DNA of 44,776 nt, taken from IMG/VR virus record IMGVR_UViG_2648501797_000002, positions 1 to 44,776 of that record; one strand, 5' to 3'. The first letter of the stretch is position 1, and every line of letters begins with the position of its first letter. Both the position numbers and the translations under genes were made by a program. Below are positions 6,443-39,857 of this stretch, piece by piece. Under the pieces are notes generated by a model that was given only the letters and a program-made list of their open reading frames with translations, had not been told where the DNA came from and made no database searches. The DNA comes from a virus. Its lineage: Duplodnaviria; Heunggongvirae; Uroviricota; Caudoviricetes.

Positions 6443-7026
6443 TGCTCACCTCCTTCTGATAGCATTGTTTCTAAAATGGTTAATGCCTGTTGATCCAGTG
6501 TAATATCTAGAGGAATCTGCAAGAATCCCTTCCATGTAAGATCCCTTCTATGAGACCACATACTGTACCAATATACAGTCCTTTCTACAAGCTGCTCCTT
6601 AGAAACGCCCAGTGACTGGAAGTAAGAATCAACTCTAAACTCTTGCTTTCTCCACTTACCCATATGTGGCACAAACAGATTCGGGTTACGCATAACGACA
6701 TCTTGCTGCGTTTCGTTAAACGCCAAATTAAAAAAAGTCACAACATCAATGTCATTTGGCGGACGTTTTTCAATGAGTTCAACATCTTCTATGAAACTAC
6801 CATCGATCCATTGAAAACCATCCGTTAACCCAGTTTTATTAATTTCTTTACGAAATTTGATGAAACCGAGTAAGATCTCGATCCTTTGTGGGCTTGTAGC
6901 GTACCGCTCTACAAATTTTAATATATCTGTCTTATATGGGGAGCGATAGGCGCTGGTTGGATGCTCCATATCCATTGGTGGGATTACACCAATTTCATTC
7001 CAGTTAGGAATTTCCTGAATCACCAT
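6439..7026 (-). CDS. Predicted nucleotidyltransferase-fold protein (195 aa)
   Basis: GS...DxD pattern (IDGSFIEDVELIEKRPPNDIDVV) consistent with a Pol-beta-type minimal nucleotidyltransferase; AT-rich. Confidence 0.5.
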   Translation of the reverse strand: MVIQEIPNWNEIGVIPPMDMEHPTSAYRSPYKTDILKFVERYATSPQRIEILLGFIKFRKEINKTGLTDGFQWIDGSFIEDVELIEKRPPNDIDVVTFFNLAFNETQQDVVMRNPNLFVPHMGKWRKQEFRVDSYFQSLGVSKEQLVERTVYWYSMWSHRRDLTWKGFLQIPLDITLDQQALTILETMLSEGGEQ

Positions 7027-7336
7027 GCTGTGGCCTTAAATTTCTTATTGGTTGTAAGAAAAAATGTCATTATTTTCAATGGAGTCATTGATTTTTTTAT
7101 CGCTTTATCAATATGACTTCTCTCGCTCGCTTAATCAGAGCCTTTCTCTGAAATTTCATCAGGGATCGCATAAAATTATTGTTTGCCTCATTCACTGCGC
7201 GAGCGAAGCCTTTCCTTCATTTACTTCTCGTACATGTTATCTAGCCTTCCACCTGAGTCGTAAATATACAATCATTCCCTGTTGTTTTAGGTGGCTTCTT
7301 ATCCATGCTTCCTGTACGTCTGCGGCATGCTGCCGA

Positions 7337-8047
7337 TCACACAAGCCTTAACTTAGTTTCTACGGCCACACCAATGATTCGACAGTTTCCGTTGATGGGA
7401 ACCAATGGCCATTGAGGGTTTAAGCCCTTCAGGTACTTCTGGTCACCATCAATGATCAGTTTTTTGAATGTCGCCTCGTTTGATTCCGAGAGTTTTGCAA
7501 TAACGAGACTTCCGTTGACCGGCTCCCTTCCGGTATCAAAAAGAACATATGTACCCTCTGGTATGCTGAGCCCGACCGGGGCAGTCATGGATTCCCCCTC
7601 GACCAACAACCAGAACGCATCCCCCTGGATGTGAGCGTCTGATTCGAGCCATAGATCGATATCTTTAAGTGCATACGGCTCGCACGCTTCCGACCAATGC
7701 CCAGCCTGAATCTTGCTTAATACAGGGTATTTAATGCCTGGGGTGTACTGGCCTACATACTTGGCATTCGATGTAGCGGCAGCACTCATTGCAGATATTT
7801 CTTTCGCAAGGCTGGGGCTAAAATCAGAGACATCCACCTGGAGGGCTCTGGCAAAAACAGCAGCCACGGCAGCATTAAGGGCATTCCTGCCATTCAAGTA
7901 ATGCCCAACGCCACCCTGAGATATGTCTAGCATGTCAGCTATTGATTGCTGTGTTATCCCAAGCTCTTTTTTCTTGGCTTCATAGAGGGCTTTCAGCCTT
8001 TCTGCGTCAGCGATCTGAGCCGATGTCAGTGTCTTTTTCTTTTCCAT
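7337..8047 (-). CDS. cI: CI-like prophage repressor (HTH plus S24 LexA-like autopeptidase domain)
   Basis: N-terminal HTH (ITQQSIADMLDISQGGVGHYLNG); C-terminal ESMTAP serine motif and FKKL lysine motif like lambda CI; start at ATG 8047, close to the operators. Confidence 0.85.
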   Translation of the reverse strand: MEKKKTLTSAQIADAERLKALYEAKKKELGITQQSIADMLDISQGGVGHYLNGRNALNAAVAAVFARALQVDVSDFSPSLAKEISAMSAAATSNAKYVGQYTPGIKYPVLSKIQAGHWSEACEPYALKDIDLWLESDAHIQGDAFWLLVEGESMTAPVGLSIPEGTYVLFDTGREPVNGSLVIAKLSESNEATFKKLIIDGDQKYLKGLNPQWPLVPINGNCRIIGVAVETKLRLV

Positions 8048-8082
8048 TTTCAAATAGTAATACCAATGCTCTTATTTTAAAA

Positions 8083-8119
8083 ATACTTGCGGTATTGCAA
8101 TGTTTAATACTTGTGGTAT
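8083..8119. promoter_or_regulatory. OR operators (ATACTTGCGGTAT and ATACTTGTGGTAT) overlapping the divergent cI and cro promoters
   Basis: Two 13-bp ATAC-N5-GTAT palindromes between the divergent cI and cro genes; candidate pR as TTGCAA-N17-TATTGT. Confidence 0.55.
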
Positions 8120-8151
8120 TGTTTGCTCATGAGTTGATAGGAGCTAACCAC

Positions 8152-8343
8152 ATGAAAATTTCTTTAGCTGAATACGTTGACGAAGTTGGACAGGCAAGAG
8201 CTGCTGATGCCATCGGCGTTCACCAGACCGCAATTAGTAAAGCTATCCGGGTAGGACGGAAGATTTTCGTTAACACCCTGCCTGATGGAAAAATTAAGGC
8301 TGAAGAGATCAAGCCTTTCCCACATAACAGAAATCCTGATTAA
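8152..8343 (+). CDS. cro: Cro-like repressor
   Basis: 63-aa protein resembling lambda Cro (GVHQTAISKAIRVGRKIFV...AEEIKPFP); GGAG RBS. Confidence 0.85.
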   Translation: MKISLAEYVDEVGQARAADAIGVHQTAISKAIRVGRKIFVNTLPDGKIKAEEIKPFPHNRNPD

Positions 8344-8348
8344 ACAAA

Positions 8349-8390
8349 GCTGAATTGAGCAGTCAGCGGGTTCTGACTGAGTAATTCAGC
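8349..8390 (+). promoter_or_regulatory. Extended imperfect hairpin downstream of cro (GCTGAATT...CAGTCAG-CGGGTT-CTGACTG...AATTCAGC) without a U-tract
   Basis: Inverted repeats read directly; position corresponds to nutR/tR1 in lambda. Confidence 0.3.
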
Positions 8391-8422
8391 CATTCCAAAC
8401 AACACCAGAGGAAGTATCACAA

Positions 8423-8644
8423 ATGGAGAGTTCAACGACACGCAACAAAGTGGAGGCTCGCAGGATAGAAAGCTGGTTACACAGCCAGATAGCTGAACTG
8501 GGAACCACGAATATCGCCAAAGTGGCCGGAGTGAATAAGTCGACGGTGAGTCGCTGGCGGGAAAGCCTGCTGCCGAACATGTCGCTACTGCTGGCCATAC
8601 TGATTTCTAACAGGCCGGGAGAGAAAGGTGACTTTGAAGCATAA
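8423..8644 (+). CDS. cII: CII-like transcriptional activator
   Basis: Resembles lambda CII (RIESWLHSQIAELGTTNIAKVAGVNKSTVSRWRESLLPNMSLLLAIL). Confidence 0.75.
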   Translation: MESSTTRNKVEARRIESWLHSQIAELGTTNIAKVAGVNKSTVSRWRESLLPNMSLLLAILISNRPGEKGDFEA

Positions 8645-8729
8645 GTGGGAACAGAAAGGCGAAAGCCGCAGTGCGCGAACACTAACGGCTTTCTACGCGA
8701 ATTAACTGAACAAATTCACAGGAGTAATT

Positions 8730-9584
8730 ATGGCAAATACTGCCGAAGTAATCAATTTCCCTGTGCCTGTCGTGGCACTACAGGAGCTGCGCGTGGCAGA
8801 TCTCGACGATGGGTTTACGCGCATCGCCAATGAGCTCCTTGAAGCTGTCATGCGTGCGGGTCTGTCGCAGTATCAGCTTTTGGTGTTCATGGCTGTCATG
8901 CGCAAAACATACGGTTTCAACAAGAAATCTGACTGGGTCAGTAACGAGCAGCTCTCGGAGCTGACCGGCATTCTCCCGCATAAGTGCTCAGCTGCAAAAA
9001 GCGTCCTGGTTAAGCGGGGGATATTAACTCAAACCGGTCGTGTTATCGGGATTAATAAAACGGTCAGCGAATGGTCATCTTTACCCGTAAAAGGTACAGA
9101 AAAGAAACATTACCTGAAAAAGGTAACATTACCCGAATCAGGTAAGAAAAGTTTACCCGAATCAGGTAACGCCTATTACCCGAATCAGGTAAACACAAAA
9201 GACAAACATACAAAAGACAATAAAGACAATATTAATAACCCCCCTAAATCCCCCCGGGCGGTTTCGTTCGATGCGTTAGCTGTTCAGTTGCCTGACTGGC
9301 TTTCTGCAGAAATCTGGTCGTCATGGGTGGCATATCGTCGCGACCTGAAAAAGCCGATCAAGTCTCAGCAGACGGTCACCCAGGCTATCAACCTGCTGGA
9401 CCGCTGCAGACTGAACGGTTACTCGCCCGAAGAAATTATCAACCGCAGCATCGCCAATGGCTGGCAAGGCCTGTTTGAGCCAAATGGTGCCAAGCCTCAA
9501 CCAAGTCAACAGGTGCGAGTTGCCGAAAATTTCTCAGGGAAGGATTACGGGCAGACTGAAATCCCATCATGGGCGAGGGACTGA
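8730..9584 (+). CDS. Replication initiation protein O-like
   Basis: N-terminus resembles lambda O (VADLDDGFTRIANELLEA...MRKTYGFNK); contains iteron repeats internally. Confidence 0.85.
   Translation: MANTAEVINFPVPVVALQELRVADLDDGFTRIANELLEAVMRAGLSQYQLLVFMAVMRKTYGFNKKSDWVSNEQLSELTGILPHKCSAAKSVLVKRGILTQTGRVIGINKTVSEWSSLPVKGTEKKHYLKKVTLPESGKKSLPESGNAYYPNQVNTKDKHTKDNKDNINNPPKSPRAVSFDALAVQLPDWLSAEIWSSWVAYRRDLKKPIKSQQTVTQAINLLDRCRLNGYSPEEIINRSIANGWQGLFEPNGAKPQPSQQVRVAENFSGKDYGQTEIPSWARD
9108..9195 (+). repeat. Origin iterons: three TTACCCGAATCAGGTAA repeats plus a degenerate fourth, followed by an A/T-rich tract, inside the O gene
   Basis: Direct repeats read in sequence at about 9108-9195; lambda-type ori architecture. 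Confidence 0.6.
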
Positions 9585-9586
9585 TC

Positions 9587-10438
9587 ATGGAACTGGAAGA
9601 AAAAATCACTGCCATTGAGCGGATGCTTGATCAGCTGAGTAAGCCACCGGAAGACATCCCGAATTGCGAGGTGGTTATCGAGCGCGTCTGTTGCGAAAAA
9701 CATGGCGAGTATGAGCAGCGTAAGCGGATCCTGACCAGCAGCATCATCAATCTGCCATCACCGCCGACACGCTGCCCGGGCTGCCTGCAAGACGAACTGA
9801 ATTTTCTGAAGGATGAAAAGGTTCGCTGGGATAAGCGAGTTCGCCAGCAAACTGCAGAAAGGCTGCTTCGCCAGCTGGACATACCAGAGCGATTCTCCAC
9901 GTGCACTCTGGACAGCTACAAGCCTGTTGGGAAGGATTCTGAGCGAGCATTACGGGTCTGCCAGGCCTACGCATCGAAATGGACTGATCGCCTCCAGCAG
10001 GGCGGTGGGTTGGTTATGTGTGGCAAGCCTGGTACCGGTAAAAACCACCTTGCGCTGGCCATTGCCCGTCATGTGATTGAGCACCACCAAAGCTCAGTCA
10101 TTTTCACGACGGCGCTGAAGATTGCCCGGGAGTTTAAATCGACCTGGTCAAAAACAGCCACGCGCACTGAGGATGAGGTGATCCGCTACTTCACGAAGCC
10201 AGACCTTCTGATTGTCGATGAGGTTGGTGTGCAGTTTGGCAGCGAAGCCGAGAAGATGATCATGTTTGAAATCATCAACACCCGCTACGAGCGCCTGAAG
10301 CCGACGATCCTGATCAGCAACCTGCCGAAGGATGAGCTGACGCAGTTTATCGGCGAGCGCGTCATCGACCGCATGAACGACGGCGGCGGCTGCACGATTT
10401 CGTTTACCTGGGACAGCTATCGGGAGAACCGGTCATGA
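9587..10438 (+). CDS. DnaC/IstB-like AAA+ helicase loader with N-terminal Cys-rich region
   Basis: Walker A (GKPGTGKNHLA) and Walker B (LLIVDEVG); N-terminal CxxC pairs; start at ATG 9587 with GAGGGA RBS. Confidence 0.8.
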   Translation: MELEEKITAIERMLDQLSKPPEDIPNCEVVIERVCCEKHGEYEQRKRILTSSIINLPSPPTRCPGCLQDELNFLKDEKVRWDKRVRQQTAERLLRQLDIPERFSTCTLDSYKPVGKDSERALRVCQAYASKWTDRLQQGGGLVMCGKPGTGKNHLALAIARHVIEHHQSSVIFTTALKIAREFKSTWSKTATRTEDEVIRYFTKPDLLIVDEVGVQFGSEAEKMIMFEIINTRYERLKPTILISNLPKDELTQFIGERVIDRMNDGGGCTISFTWDSYRENRS

Positions 10439-10728
10439 CAGGAAAAGACGCAATTCTGAACTACCTGAAAACGCATAAAACCTGCAGCTCTCCAGATGTC
10501 GCCGCGGCTTCCGGGATGACGCATACCTGCATCAACCAGGCTGCCAATATCCTGGCAAAGCAGGGGGTACTGGTAGCGGAAGCTCGGGTGTGGCGGACGG
10601 TTTACTACCGGCTGGCCACTGAAGAAGAAATTTCAGGCAGGAAGAGCACCAATCAGATTTTCAACGAGTGTCGGCAAAGCCCGGCGATGAAACGGGTACT
10701 GGCTGTTTACGGGAGAACATCAGCATGA
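10435..10728 (+). CDS. Hypothetical protein
   Basis: ORF coupled (ATGA overlap) to the DnaC-like gene. Confidence 0.45.
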   Translation: MTGKDAILNYLKTHKTCSSPDVAAASGMTHTCINQAANILAKQGVLVAEARVWRTVYYRLATEEEISGRKSTNQIFNECRQSPAMKRVLAVYGRTSA

Positions 10729-11348
10729 CTATCACATTACAGGCAGTAAACGAGCTCATCGCCGCTCTGGAGAGCGCTGGCGAGCTGTCGATCAGAGAGC
10801 GGAAGTATCTGGACGTTATGCGCTGGGCGATTCGTGTTGCTGGCGAGCGTGATGCGGCGCTGAATGCAGAGCGTGTATGGGAAAAGACCATGATGGAAGC
10901 TTGCGGCGAGGATGGCCCTGCGTCGGTAGCCAACGAAATTCGCTCGTTGCGGGCTCTACGGGATACGGCAATTCAGGCGCTTAAGTCTCAGGTTGAGCAG
11001 CTGTCTGCGGAGAATGTGGCGCTGAAGGCAGCCGTTGCGGAAGAAATTGAAGTTATCAATCGTGGTGGACAGCGGTATTGCGTGAAGGACGGCATGTCTA
11101 TAAACCCGATATATGCGCGCGGATGGAATGACCACCGGGCTAATTTGACAGCAGTAGAAACCCCCGCCACAGATCGCTTCGTAGTCGGGATTAAGGCTGA
11201 TGGGGTGGAAGAGTTTGCAGCGATGACAGAAAAAGTTGGTGATGAAGAGGAGTTTTACGATCACGGGGAGTCTTCTGAGACGCTGAAATACACGGCTAAG
11301 CAAGCAAGATTATTCGCCCAGCAGCTGCGCGATGGGGCCGACAAATGA
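10725..11348 (+). CDS. Hypothetical protein with coiled-coil segment
   Basis: Start at ATG 10725 overlapping the previous stop. Confidence 0.45.
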   Translation: MTITLQAVNELIAALESAGELSIRERKYLDVMRWAIRVAGERDAALNAERVWEKTMMEACGEDGPASVANEIRSLRALRDTAIQALKSQVEQLSAENVALKAAVAEEIEVINRGGQRYCVKDGMSINPIYARGWNDHRANLTAVETPATDRFVVGIKADGVEEFAAMTEKVGDEEEFYDHGESSETLKYTAKQARLFAQQLRDGADK

Positions 11349-37706: not shown

Positions 37707-39857
37707 ATGAGTGAATACGATACCGGCAATCCTGTGCCGTCTGCATCCATGCCTGATGCATGGGATAATATGCAGTCTATTGACAAGTTCGTTAATAGCA
37801 GTGATGAAACCATTACCACACGCACAGGCAAACAGTTAGATACTTTGCATGGCGTTAATGTTAAGGCGGACAACCAGCTAACGCAGCAGCAAGCAGACTT
37901 TGAAACCTCGCAAGAAGAAAGGGATGCTGTAGTTGAGGAAACCAGGCAGAACCTGATCCCTCTGAGCAAGCAATACATGACGCTTGCTGATGCGCAGGCA
38001 GATATCGCAAATATCCCGGTGGGGTCTACCACGTATTACCGCAGTCCTGATGATAGCGCGCTGGCTATTGAAGTAATTAACAATGGTGGCACTCTTGAGC
38101 CCACCGGTAGAAAAATGCCATCTAAGAAGTATATAGATGATGAAATTGCTCCTTACTCCCCTTTGTTAAATATAACCCAAGCATCAGAATTCTTTTCCTC
38201 TGATGAATATAAAGATTCTGGGGTCGAAGAGGCTATATTAGATGAAAATAAAAAAACACTACTATCCAGAAAAGGCGCTGAGTGGTTTTTTCAAAAAATA
38301 ATAGCGGGAGAAATCAGCGCAGATGAATTTTCTGCCGAAATCCTTTCAGGTAATGACATTTTGATTTCCGGGCAGAGCCTTCTTGGAATCGTTCCTTTTT
38401 TACAGGCTTCGACATTTGTCGATATATCTGAATTTTCGGATTCGGGGTATGATTCCGCAACTTTTTCTGAAAACAATAGAATCATTGTTGGCATTAAAGG
38501 GACCACCCTTTATTTTAGCAAAATTGTCGTTGGTGATGCTGTAATTGAAGGAAGCGATTTTACAGAGGTAAAGGGTGTTACTGACGCATTATCACCTCTT
38601 CCAGAGTCAGTAACATTTCTCTCACCTGATGAGTATGCAGATAGTGGATACATTTCGGCATCCACATCTGAAAACCTGGTTGTTATCGAGTCGCTGAAAT
38701 CATCGGACCTGACAAACTCAGGTCATCCTGATTACATTGCATTTAGCGAAGAGAAAGGAGGCTATGAGCAGATTTTCCTGTTTGATCGCGATACAGGTCA
38801 GCAGGTTCGTGTAACCAATACATCCAGTAATGAAACCCTGCCACGCGTTGATGGTGATAAGGTTATCTGGCAATCGGACAGGGAGACTAATCGCGCACCG
38901 GGTGGGCAGTATTATTGCTATATCAGTGATCTGACTGAGCACTCTGTAATGTCCAGGCCGATCATTTGCGGGTGGGGCCATTCAATGGTTGACAACCCCC
39001 GTATGCTGACACGCCTGCAGGAGCTAACCGGATACACGGCCTATAACTTTGGCAAAAGCTCACGCACAAGCGTTGGCACAGCTGCTGCTCAGGGTGGGCG
39101 CAGAGCGTATTACGTTCCAGTTGGCGGCAGCATTCCTGCCAGCGGTTCGGTAACTCTTTCTCCGGCAAACCCGGGGCCACTGAGTTATTTTGCCAACGCC
39201 GCAGCATCGACGCCGTTCCACGGTTCTCTGGCTGGCATTCCAGGCAATTTTGCATGGGATGGAACGAATGCCACATTTACCCGTGATGCATCTGGTGATG
39301 CGGTTAGCGTACCTGTTGCCGTGCCATTCATTTGTGATCCGGTGACCACTGGCGCTATTACCGGAGGCATTCCGGCAGGAACATCTTTCCCTCTTCACCC
39401 TGAATGTATAAATATTTTCTGGATGGGAAGGAATAATATTAGCCAGTCAATGCAGGTTCTCAGCGACACTATTGGTGTAGTTGAATACCTTAAATCTCTT
39501 GGGCAGAAGGTTATTATCCTGCCTGATTTTAACAGCAGTGTTGAGCCCCGTGGATCAGCAGGTTATGCAAACGTCATGTTATCAAACAGCATGATTAAAA
39601 AGAAATACCCTGAGTTATGGTGCGAAATTGATAGTGTTGATATGAGGGAAAACTTCGTAAACAACTATAATCCAGCATATTCTCAGGACGTTTCTGACTT
39701 TGGAAATGATATCCCTCCAACTTCATTGAAGTATGACGGACTGCATCCTAGCCAATCGAAAGAAACATCTAACGCCCCTGAATATGCATTGCAGGCTGGC
39801 GCGGACGTAAACGCTGAATTTATTTACCAGAAATTTCAATTATTAGGGTGGGTGTAA
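37707..39857 (+). CDS. Tailspike/receptor-binding protein with central PD40-like beta-propeller region and C-terminal SGNH/GDSL-type esterase domain
   Basis: C-terminal DGLHPS block-V-like motif and GWGHSM block-I-like motif; central YIAFSE...DGDKVIWQSDRE resembles TolB-type PD40 repeats; AT-rich 5' half. Confidence 0.55.
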   Translation: MSEYDTGNPVPSASMPDAWDNMQSIDKFVNSSDETITTRTGKQLDTLHGVNVKADNQLTQQQADFETSQEERDAVVEETRQNLIPLSKQYMTLADAQADIANIPVGSTTYYRSPDDSALAIEVINNGGTLEPTGRKMPSKKYIDDEIAPYSPLLNITQASEFFSSDEYKDSGVEEAILDENKKTLLSRKGAEWFFQKIIAGEISADEFSAEILSGNDILISGQSLLGIVPFLQASTFVDISEFSDSGYDSATFSENNRIIVGIKGTTLYFSKIVVGDAVIEGSDFTEVKGVTDALSPLPESVTFLSPDEYADSGYISASTSENLVVIESLKSSDLTNSGHPDYIAFSEEKGGYEQIFLFDRDTGQQVRVTNTSSNETLPRVDGDKVIWQSDRETNRAPGGQYYCYISDLTEHSVMSRPIICGWGHSMVDNPRMLTRLQELTGYTAYNFGKSSRTSVGTAAAQGGRRAYYVPVGGSIPASGSVTLSPANPGPLSYFANAAASTPFHGSLAGIPGNFAWDGTNATFTRDASGDAVSVPVAVPFICDPVTTGAITGGIPAGTSFPLHPECINIFWMGRNNISQSMQVLSDTIGVVEYLKSLGQKVIILPDFNSSVEPRGSAGYANVMLSNSMIKKKYPELWCEIDSVDMRENFVNNYNPAYSQDVSDFGNDIPPTSLKYDGLHPSQSKETSNAPEYALQAGADVNAEFIYQKFQLLGWV

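Follow-up and report, generated by a model that had tools for sequence, protein, structure and literature searches.

A probable lambda-type replication origin within the O gene of a temperate lambdoid Klebsiella phage

Does the cluster of short direct repeats inside the O-type initiator gene of this viral genome (8730–9584) mark an origin of replication, and if so, of which kind? In the lambda paradigm, dimers of the O protein bind dyad-symmetric iterons, supercoiled DNA opens over a tract of about 40 bp, and a loader brings in DnaB (PMC5043065, PMC7466680, PMC3349717). An earlier note on the same DNA had read the repeats as a lambda-type origin embedded in the O gene. We examined this reading in the window, by which we mean the whole stretch of DNA that was analysed (44,776 nucleotides, or 44.8 kb).

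Judged from sequence, every expectation of an origin of the lambda kind that was testable agrees with what we found, and we regard it as highly probable that the array and its A-rich tract (9081–9238) form an ori-lambda-like origin, from which a temperate lambdoid Klebsiella phage or prophage replicates. The lambda-type reading holds for the position in the inter-domain linker of O, the dyad symmetry and spacing of the repeats, the A-rich tract, the conservation at the DNA level and the co-variation with the N-terminal domain of the initiator. It does not hold for the right flank, which is P22-like, or for the partner protein, which is DnaC/IstB-like. By its gene and sequence content the locus is thus neither a strict lambda O/P replicon (there is no palindrome and no P-type loader) nor a P22-type replicon (there is no phage helicase).

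The O gene and its neighbourhood

The gene at 8730–9584 (plus strand) encodes a protein of 284 amino acids, assigned to the O-type replication initiators from its open reading frame, Pfam and PHROG matches and annotated homologues. Residues 21–115 match the full length of the Pfam domain PF04492 (Phage_rep_O, profile positions 1–95 of 95, E = 9.9e-36), scoring 122.6 bits against a curated cut-off of 28.7, and the full-length protein falls in PHROG 678, 'replication initiation O-like' (E = 3.7e-88). The gene is 98–99% identical to the 'DNA replication protein O' genes of Klebsiella phages 6 LV-2017 and GZ7 (98.2% for GZ7). A search of the PDB returned no relative of the protein at E ≤ 1.

The limits of the Pfam match (8790–9074, plus strand) delineate the N-terminal DNA-binding domain segment, which would be the part of O that reads the iterons and whose class tracks theirs among relatives. 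Because the iterons begin two codons after this domain ends (residue 115, nucleotide 9074) and before the C-terminal family phrog_18589, which starts at residue 156, the putative origin occupies the linker between the N- and C-terminal domain segments.

The order of the surrounding genes is cI, a cro-like ORF, cII, O, a DnaC-like loader and ren. The CI-like repressor (7337–8053, minus strand) has HTH and S24 peptidase domains. Between cI and cII lies a short ORF that is putatively cro-like and is called 'repressor protein' in the annotation of phage GZ7; the CII homologue follows at 8423–8644. The gene after O (9569–10438, plus strand) encodes a DnaC/IstB-like AAA+ ATPase with matches to Pfam IstB_IS21 (E = 3.4e-19), the Bac_DnaA ATPase (E = 7e-9) and PHROG 50, 'DnaC-like helicase loader' (E = 1.7e-86). 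These matches and its co-occurrence with O in relatives point to it as the helicase loader that partners O. The gene for a Ren-like protein is downstream of it. The window as a whole is a mosaic Klebsiella lambdoid phage. The nearest record, that of Klebsiella phage GZ7, is 95.6% identical and aligns over 52% of the first 25 kb.

Sites resembling the DnaA box TTATCCACA, with up to one mismatch, were not found within 4 kb of the origin, and their total count is at chance level. The locus therefore differs from a plasmid-type iteron origin, in which a monomeric Rep protein is assisted by DnaA and a DnaA box stands beside the array.

A leftward promoter-like site overlaps the start codon of O (minus strand, 8755 to 8727), with TTGATT and CATAAT separated by 17 nt and an upstream TG. 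Its core, GTATTTGCCATAATTACTCCTGT, matches the lambda pO region at 21 of 23 positions. Downstream of it, a hairpin, GAAAGCCG...CGGCTTTC (about 8693–8661), precedes a T-rich run. Taken together, the promoter-like site, hairpin and T-run (minus strand, 8755–8650) look like an oop-type antisense RNA unit (PMC3349717) of about 70 nt. Unlike lambda oop, the putative transcript would hardly extend into cII, whose end is at 8644.

The iteron array, the A-rich tract and the right flank

The 17-mer TTACCCGAATCAGGTAA occurs in three exact copies, at 9129–9145 (iteron 3), 9153–9169 (iteron 4) and 9176–9192 (iteron 5). A copy with three mismatches and both arms intact, TTACCTGAAAAAGGTAA, lies at 9110–9126 (iteron 2) and was identified by repeat search and from relatives. 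Three exact 17-bp iterons and a degenerate fourth are what the earlier note had reported, and all four were recovered. Its start at 9108 and its count of four copies, however, need correction: a fifth copy, TTACCCGTAAAAGGTAC, with four mismatches, lies at 9081–9097 (iteron 1), so that the array starts 27 nt further to the left. We assign no strand to any of the five.

Relatives speak to the status of iteron 1. Scanning viral contigs yielded 80 loci with relatives of O, from 99% down to 49% identity, which we compared by means of a repeat finder and domain-wise BLAST. A perfect or near-perfect TTACCCGAATCAGGTAA stands at gene offset 352, the place of iteron 1, in L002, L021, L026 and L060–L079. 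Because many relatives have a perfect copy at exactly the same offset, we count iteron 1 as a genuine member of the array.

All five copies have the form of a near-palindrome, TTACC followed by seven central bases and GGTAA, and thus provide at least four direct repeats of about 17–19 bp with internal dyad symmetry (five of TTACC-N7-GGTAA, three of them exact). The array occupies offsets 352–463 of the O gene. Start-to-start distances are 29, 19, 24 and 23 nt, about two helical turns as in lambda, and are the same in nearly all relatives with TTACC-type iterons. Scanning both strands of the whole 44.8-kb window with up to three mismatches gave seven matches to the 17-mer, all within the array. 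Across 100 dinucleotide-preserving shuffles the chance expectation was 0.06, and none of the 100 reached seven.

Two further calls on the iterons were rejected as artefacts of their dyad symmetry. One was an Rfam match to mir-26, the only match in 7000–11000, which was sub-threshold (24 bits, where the gathering score is 57). The other placed minus-strand 'terminators' on iterons 3 and 4, where the total of 4 against 1.9 ± 1.5 expected is not significant.

In some relatives (L027–L029, L032, L034, L036 and L041) a further iteron-like site, TTACCCAAATCGGGCGA, lies upstream of iteron 1 at a distance of 56 nt, within the segment that encodes the N-terminal domain. It stands at O offset 296, or at 260 in L034 and L036. 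At the corresponding place the window (9025–9041) has only TTAACTCAAACCGGTCG, which is not a convincing site.

Directly after iteron 5 comes a strand-asymmetric, A-rich tract of 46 nt, ACACAAAAGACAAACATACAAAAGACAATAAAGACAATATTAATAA (9193–9238, plus strand), which its composition, instability and conservation mark as the probable DNA-unwinding element. The earlier note had reported an A/T-rich tract after the iterons, inside the O coding sequence, and this one does lie wholly within the 8730–9584 frame. It comprises 29 A, 6 T, 3 G and 7 C over 9193–9237; its GC content is 0.28–0.32, compared with 0.52 for the whole window, and its AT skew reaches 0.77. Nearest-neighbour stability ranks it as the least stable 40–60 bp of the O gene, and just 0.25–0.5% of the window's stretches of the same length are as unstable. 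The opening of the tract, ACACAAAAGACA...ACAAAAGA, recurs in lambda, P22 and HK446 and, irrespective of iteron class, in each of the 80 relatives, and the tract's first 30 nt are almost invariant among 49 distinct relatives.

The tract is bordered on the right by a pair of C-runs, CCCCCC-TAAAT-CCCCCC (CCCCCCTAAATCCCCCC; 9239–9255, plus strand), a possible right boundary of the origin. A similar pair is found in 60 of the 63 distinct O genes that have no lambda-type C-terminus, including P22 gene 18 and HK446, a frequency in which DNA-level and protein-level conservation are confounded, as the pair doubles as coding sequence for the Pro-rich linker NPPKSP. The C-terminal domains of P22 gene 18 and HK446 are unrelated to that of the window's O, yet the pair is present in both. 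O genes with a lambda C-terminus instead have lambda's palindrome (TCGTCCGAGAATTCTGGCGA where the window has CCCCCCTAAATCCCCCC), and at 9230–9290 in the window no inverted repeat like lambda's right-hand palindrome was found. The C-run pair could work as DNA in place of that palindrome, either as a GC clamp that limits rightward unwinding or as a landmark for helicase loading. An argument from codon usage was discarded as circular, because the definition of the motif itself forces CCC/CCT codons. C-run pairs also stand to the right of the A-rich tracts in L084 and L085.

One alternative reading is that the array binds O mainly for control or exclusion, through O titration, 'handcuffing' or prophage incompatibility, and that replication starts elsewhere. 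Plasmid-borne lambda iterons do inhibit lambda-type phages in their replication, probably because they sequester O (PMC3349717), and the extra distal iterons of Stx phages are weakly bound (PMC7466680). Titration, however, is a side property of real origins and no replacement for one. The same 17-mer scan of the 44.8-kb window (both strands, up to three mismatches) found no second iteron cluster, the surrounding 4 kb holds no DnaA box, and the array adjoins a conserved unwinding-type tract similar in sequence to that of lambda. We consider a purely regulatory array very improbable.

Nor do we give much credence to an intact-looking but inactive relic, left by a defective prophage in which the origin has ceased to fire. 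Iteron 1 is degenerate, and the genome is a mosaic of which the closest phage record covers only about half of the part compared. Against this, both O and the DnaC-like gene are full-length ORFs, and the nearest relatives keep iteron 1 in this degenerate form. The array is identical in many independent viral contigs and in GZ7, where the A-rich tract is identical as well. The GZ7 record describes a complete phage genome from hospital sewage, which argues against a dead relic.

Conservation of the repeats as DNA

If the repeats serve as binding sites, their sequence should be kept irrespective of the peptide that they encode. Three of the iterons start at codon position 1 and read LPVKGT, LPESGK and LPESGN, while two start at codon position 3 and read YLKKV and YPNQVN. 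The 23-nt spacing before iteron 5 is not a multiple of three, and the exact 17-mer consequently yields two unrelated peptides. Because the identical 17-mer is read as LPESGK in iteron 3 and LPESGN in iteron 4 but, in another codon frame, as YPNQVN in iteron 5, which adjoins the A-rich tract, the repeat is kept as DNA and not as peptide.

Diversity among relatives agrees with this. Fifty-four loci that align without gaps to the window over O nucleotides 1–493 (leaving out the misaligned loci L062, L074 and L082) gave 49 distinct sequences, 79–100% identical. Mean pairwise diversity at third codon positions was 0.289 in the N-terminal domain (77% of sites variable) and 0.045 in the iterons (30% of sites variable). 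At all positions, it was 0.26 in the spacers and 0.056 in the iterons. Both contrasts (iterons against N-terminal third positions, and iterons against spacers) gave Mann–Whitney p = 4e-7; the 49 sequences share ancestry and are not independent, and the contrast of iteron with non-iteron positions is internal to the same genes. The TTACC and GGTAA arms are invariant in 245 of 245 copies, and what appreciable variation there is falls at central positions 6, 7, 8, 10 and 11. These comparisons show purifying selection on the iterons at the level of DNA sequence.

The least credible alternative, to which we assign almost no weight, is that the repeats are a mere by-product of a low-complexity linker peptide (LPESGK repeats) and have no DNA function: the region does code for a hydrophilic, K/N/P/S/T-rich inter-domain linker, and relatives do differ in copy number (4 to 9), as slippage-prone coding repeats would, but one 17-mer gives different peptides in two reading frames, third codon positions are about 6-fold less diverse in the repeats than in the structured N-terminal domain, the repeats are palindromic, and the whole set changes sequence together with the N-terminal domain.

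The spacers, otherwise variable, contain A-tracts that are invariant or nearly so among the 49 distinct relatives (AAAA in AGAAAAGAAACA, 9098–9109, and GAAAAGT, 9146–9152). These would fit intrinsic bending of the kind reported for ori-lambda, with lysine coding as the other possible cause.

Related origins, exchangeable modules and a working model

Ori-lambda (nt 39034–39160, inside gene O) has the linker location in common with the window, the first iteron lying at offset 349 in lambda and 352 in the window. Its four annotated iterons are spaced 20/24/23, compared with 19/24/23 for the last four in the window, and in both phages they are dyad-symmetric and 17–19 bp long. The lambda tract after iteron 4 reads ACACAAAAGACACTATTACAAAAGAAAAAAG and is likewise about 40 bp long and A-rich, with recognisably the same opening. 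Both have an initiator of the PF04492 family, and in both the genes run cI, cro, cII, O, loader and ren. The two origins differ in iteron sequence (ATCCCTCAAAACGAGGGA in lambda) and copy number (four in lambda, five in the window), and the N-terminal domains of their O proteins are only 47% identical. Lambda's right-hand palindrome, TCGTCAGAGAATTCTGGCGA, is absent from the window, which has the C-run pair there instead. The C-terminal domain of lambda O is unrelated to the window's, and the loader is P in lambda but DnaC/IstB-like in the window; BLAST gave no match between the window's O C-terminus and lambda O, or between the next gene and lambda P.

The right flank is closer to P22 gene 18 (record M10074) and the HK97/HK446 type, where four iterons are followed by ACACAAAAGACAATATACAAAAGACAATAAATACAAATA and then by a C-run pair, ACCCCCTTACCCCC, which the pair in the window resembles. 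P22 iterons (TTTACCGAATCAGTCAA and TTAACGGATTCGGTAAA) are the closest classical sequence to the window's, and among three classical references compared, gp18 has the most similar N-terminus, at 58% identity. In P22 and phage L, each initiator of the group is reported to recognise the iterons within the gene that encodes it (PMC8022706). The P22 origin nonetheless differs from the window in half-site spacing and sequence, and its initiator has an unrelated C-terminal domain. The P22 partner is a DnaB-type helicase, gp12, whereas the window's is a DnaC-like loader, and the window's downstream gene gave no match to the HK446/P22 helicase.

Stx phages 933W and P27 carry six iterons and thus, like the window, more than four; unlike the window, their iterons and O are of the lambda type and their loader is P. 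In these phages the two extra distal iterons are weakly bound yet needed for efficient replication, and in lambda the two iterons nearest the AT-rich tract are enough for unwinding (PMC7466680). The weakly bound distal iterons of Stx phages provide a precedent for the window's degenerate distal copy.

The TTACC iteron class is also that of E. coli Bievrevirus phages 4A7 and Lambda_4C10 and their relatives (Perceval, the PhiR series and Turner), which have five copies at the same offsets and spacing as the window. The O N-terminal domain in the 4A7/Lambda_4C10 group is 84–85% identical to the window's, but homology stops within the A-rich tract, at query nucleotide 493 (window 9222). Beyond this point, the Bievrevirus sequences continue with lambda's palindrome, a lambda O C-terminal domain (96–99% identical) and lambda P. 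From their sequences, phages of this group are natural domain-swap hybrids.

The same separation is seen among the 80 loci. Wherever the N-terminal domain reaches 72% identity to the window's, the iterons are of the TTACC type and number 4 to 9, with a C-terminus of the window type or of the lambda type (L002, L060–L083). Conversely, L040 and L056 have C-termini 96–97% identical to the window's over the aligned part and N-termini only 46% identical, and at the same place they carry GTCACC-N5-GTGAC iterons; the DnaC-like gene of L040 is 99% identical to the window's. Other N-terminal classes come with TGTCTCsAAGTTAGAGA iterons (L059, L062 and L074) or P22-like TTTACyGAWTCGGTAAA iterons (L055). 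In all, we found six iteron classes (TTACC, GTCACC, TGTCTC, P22-like, HK446 and lambda), every one of them paired with an N-terminal class of its own and independent of the C-terminus and the loader. At the sequence level, this shows that the iterons co-vary with the N-terminal domain of the initiator.

The C-terminal end of O shows a second co-variation, with the loader. The full window-type C-terminus pairs with a DnaC-like gene and the lambda C-terminus with lambda P. In L023, L030, L031, L056 and L058, the C-terminal domain is of the window type (85–97% identical), but the last ~30 residues are swapped and a P-like gene follows, 33–36% identical to lambda P. Because the O tail changes with the downstream gene while the rest of the C-terminal domain stays 85–97% identical, the alignments suggest that the last ~30 residues form a short loader-specific tail. 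The tail ending in GAKPQPSQQVRVAENFSGKDYGQTEIPSWARD (window 9480–9584) pairs with the DnaC-like ATPase, and the tail ending in GQARRSRDAGQEGLHWNSPDAWRDFL pairs with the P-like protein. Two exchangeable modules, one of N-terminal domain and iterons and the other of C-terminal tail and loader, thus meet at a shared A-rich tract.

A bolder and, in our estimate, rather doubtful proposal is that lambdoid origins without a lambda O C-terminus carry a third element, consisting of C5–6 runs about 8–11 bp apart to the right of the A-rich tract, and, separately, that the last ~30 residues of O are a swappable tag that alone decides whether the loader is DnaC-like or P-like.

Taking the region as an ori-lambda-like origin, we infer how it might work by analogy with lambda. 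Dimers of O would bind the five iterons (9081–9192) through the N-terminal domain, with the four iterons nearest the A-rich tract as strong sites and the distal degenerate copy as a weak auxiliary site. On negatively supercoiled DNA, the O–iteron complex would then melt the 46-bp tract at 9193–9238. Transcription from the rightward early promoter through cro, cII and O probably assists this melting, as the gene order suggests. Finally, the C-terminal part of O would recruit the phage DnaC-like ATPase, which would load the host DnaB helicase on the opened strands. Unwinding, transcriptional activation and helicase loading are, like O binding, carried over from lambda, and because the loader here is DnaC-like and not P, the steps after O binding are an extrapolation across a change of partner.

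The kind of origin described here is textbook, and conceptually it adds little beyond another specificity class of the lambda paradigm. We found no description of the iteron sequence in the searchable literature: a search for the 17-mer returned nothing, and a search on lambdoid origins with O and a DnaC-like protein returned nothing specific to the window's class. TTACC-type arrays are present in public phage records, and the feature tables of those records mark no origin or iteron there. The result locates the putative origin of a common family of temperate phages of Klebsiella and E. coli, and could be used in annotation, in building mini-replicons and in predicting the replication incompatibility of co-resident prophages. 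In addition, the natural hybrids cleanly illustrate that N-terminal domain plus iterons and C-terminal tail plus loader are exchanged separately and joined at the A-rich tract.

Iteron copy number differs among relatives through duplication of whole units. L038 has nine iterons, in repeated 48-nt units of two iterons each (nt 352–559 of its O gene), and L031 has six, in 24-nt units. L016 has a 15-nt duplication, ACAAACATACAAAAG, within the A-rich tract. From these sequences, the origin region changes by slippage with the reading frame of O retained.
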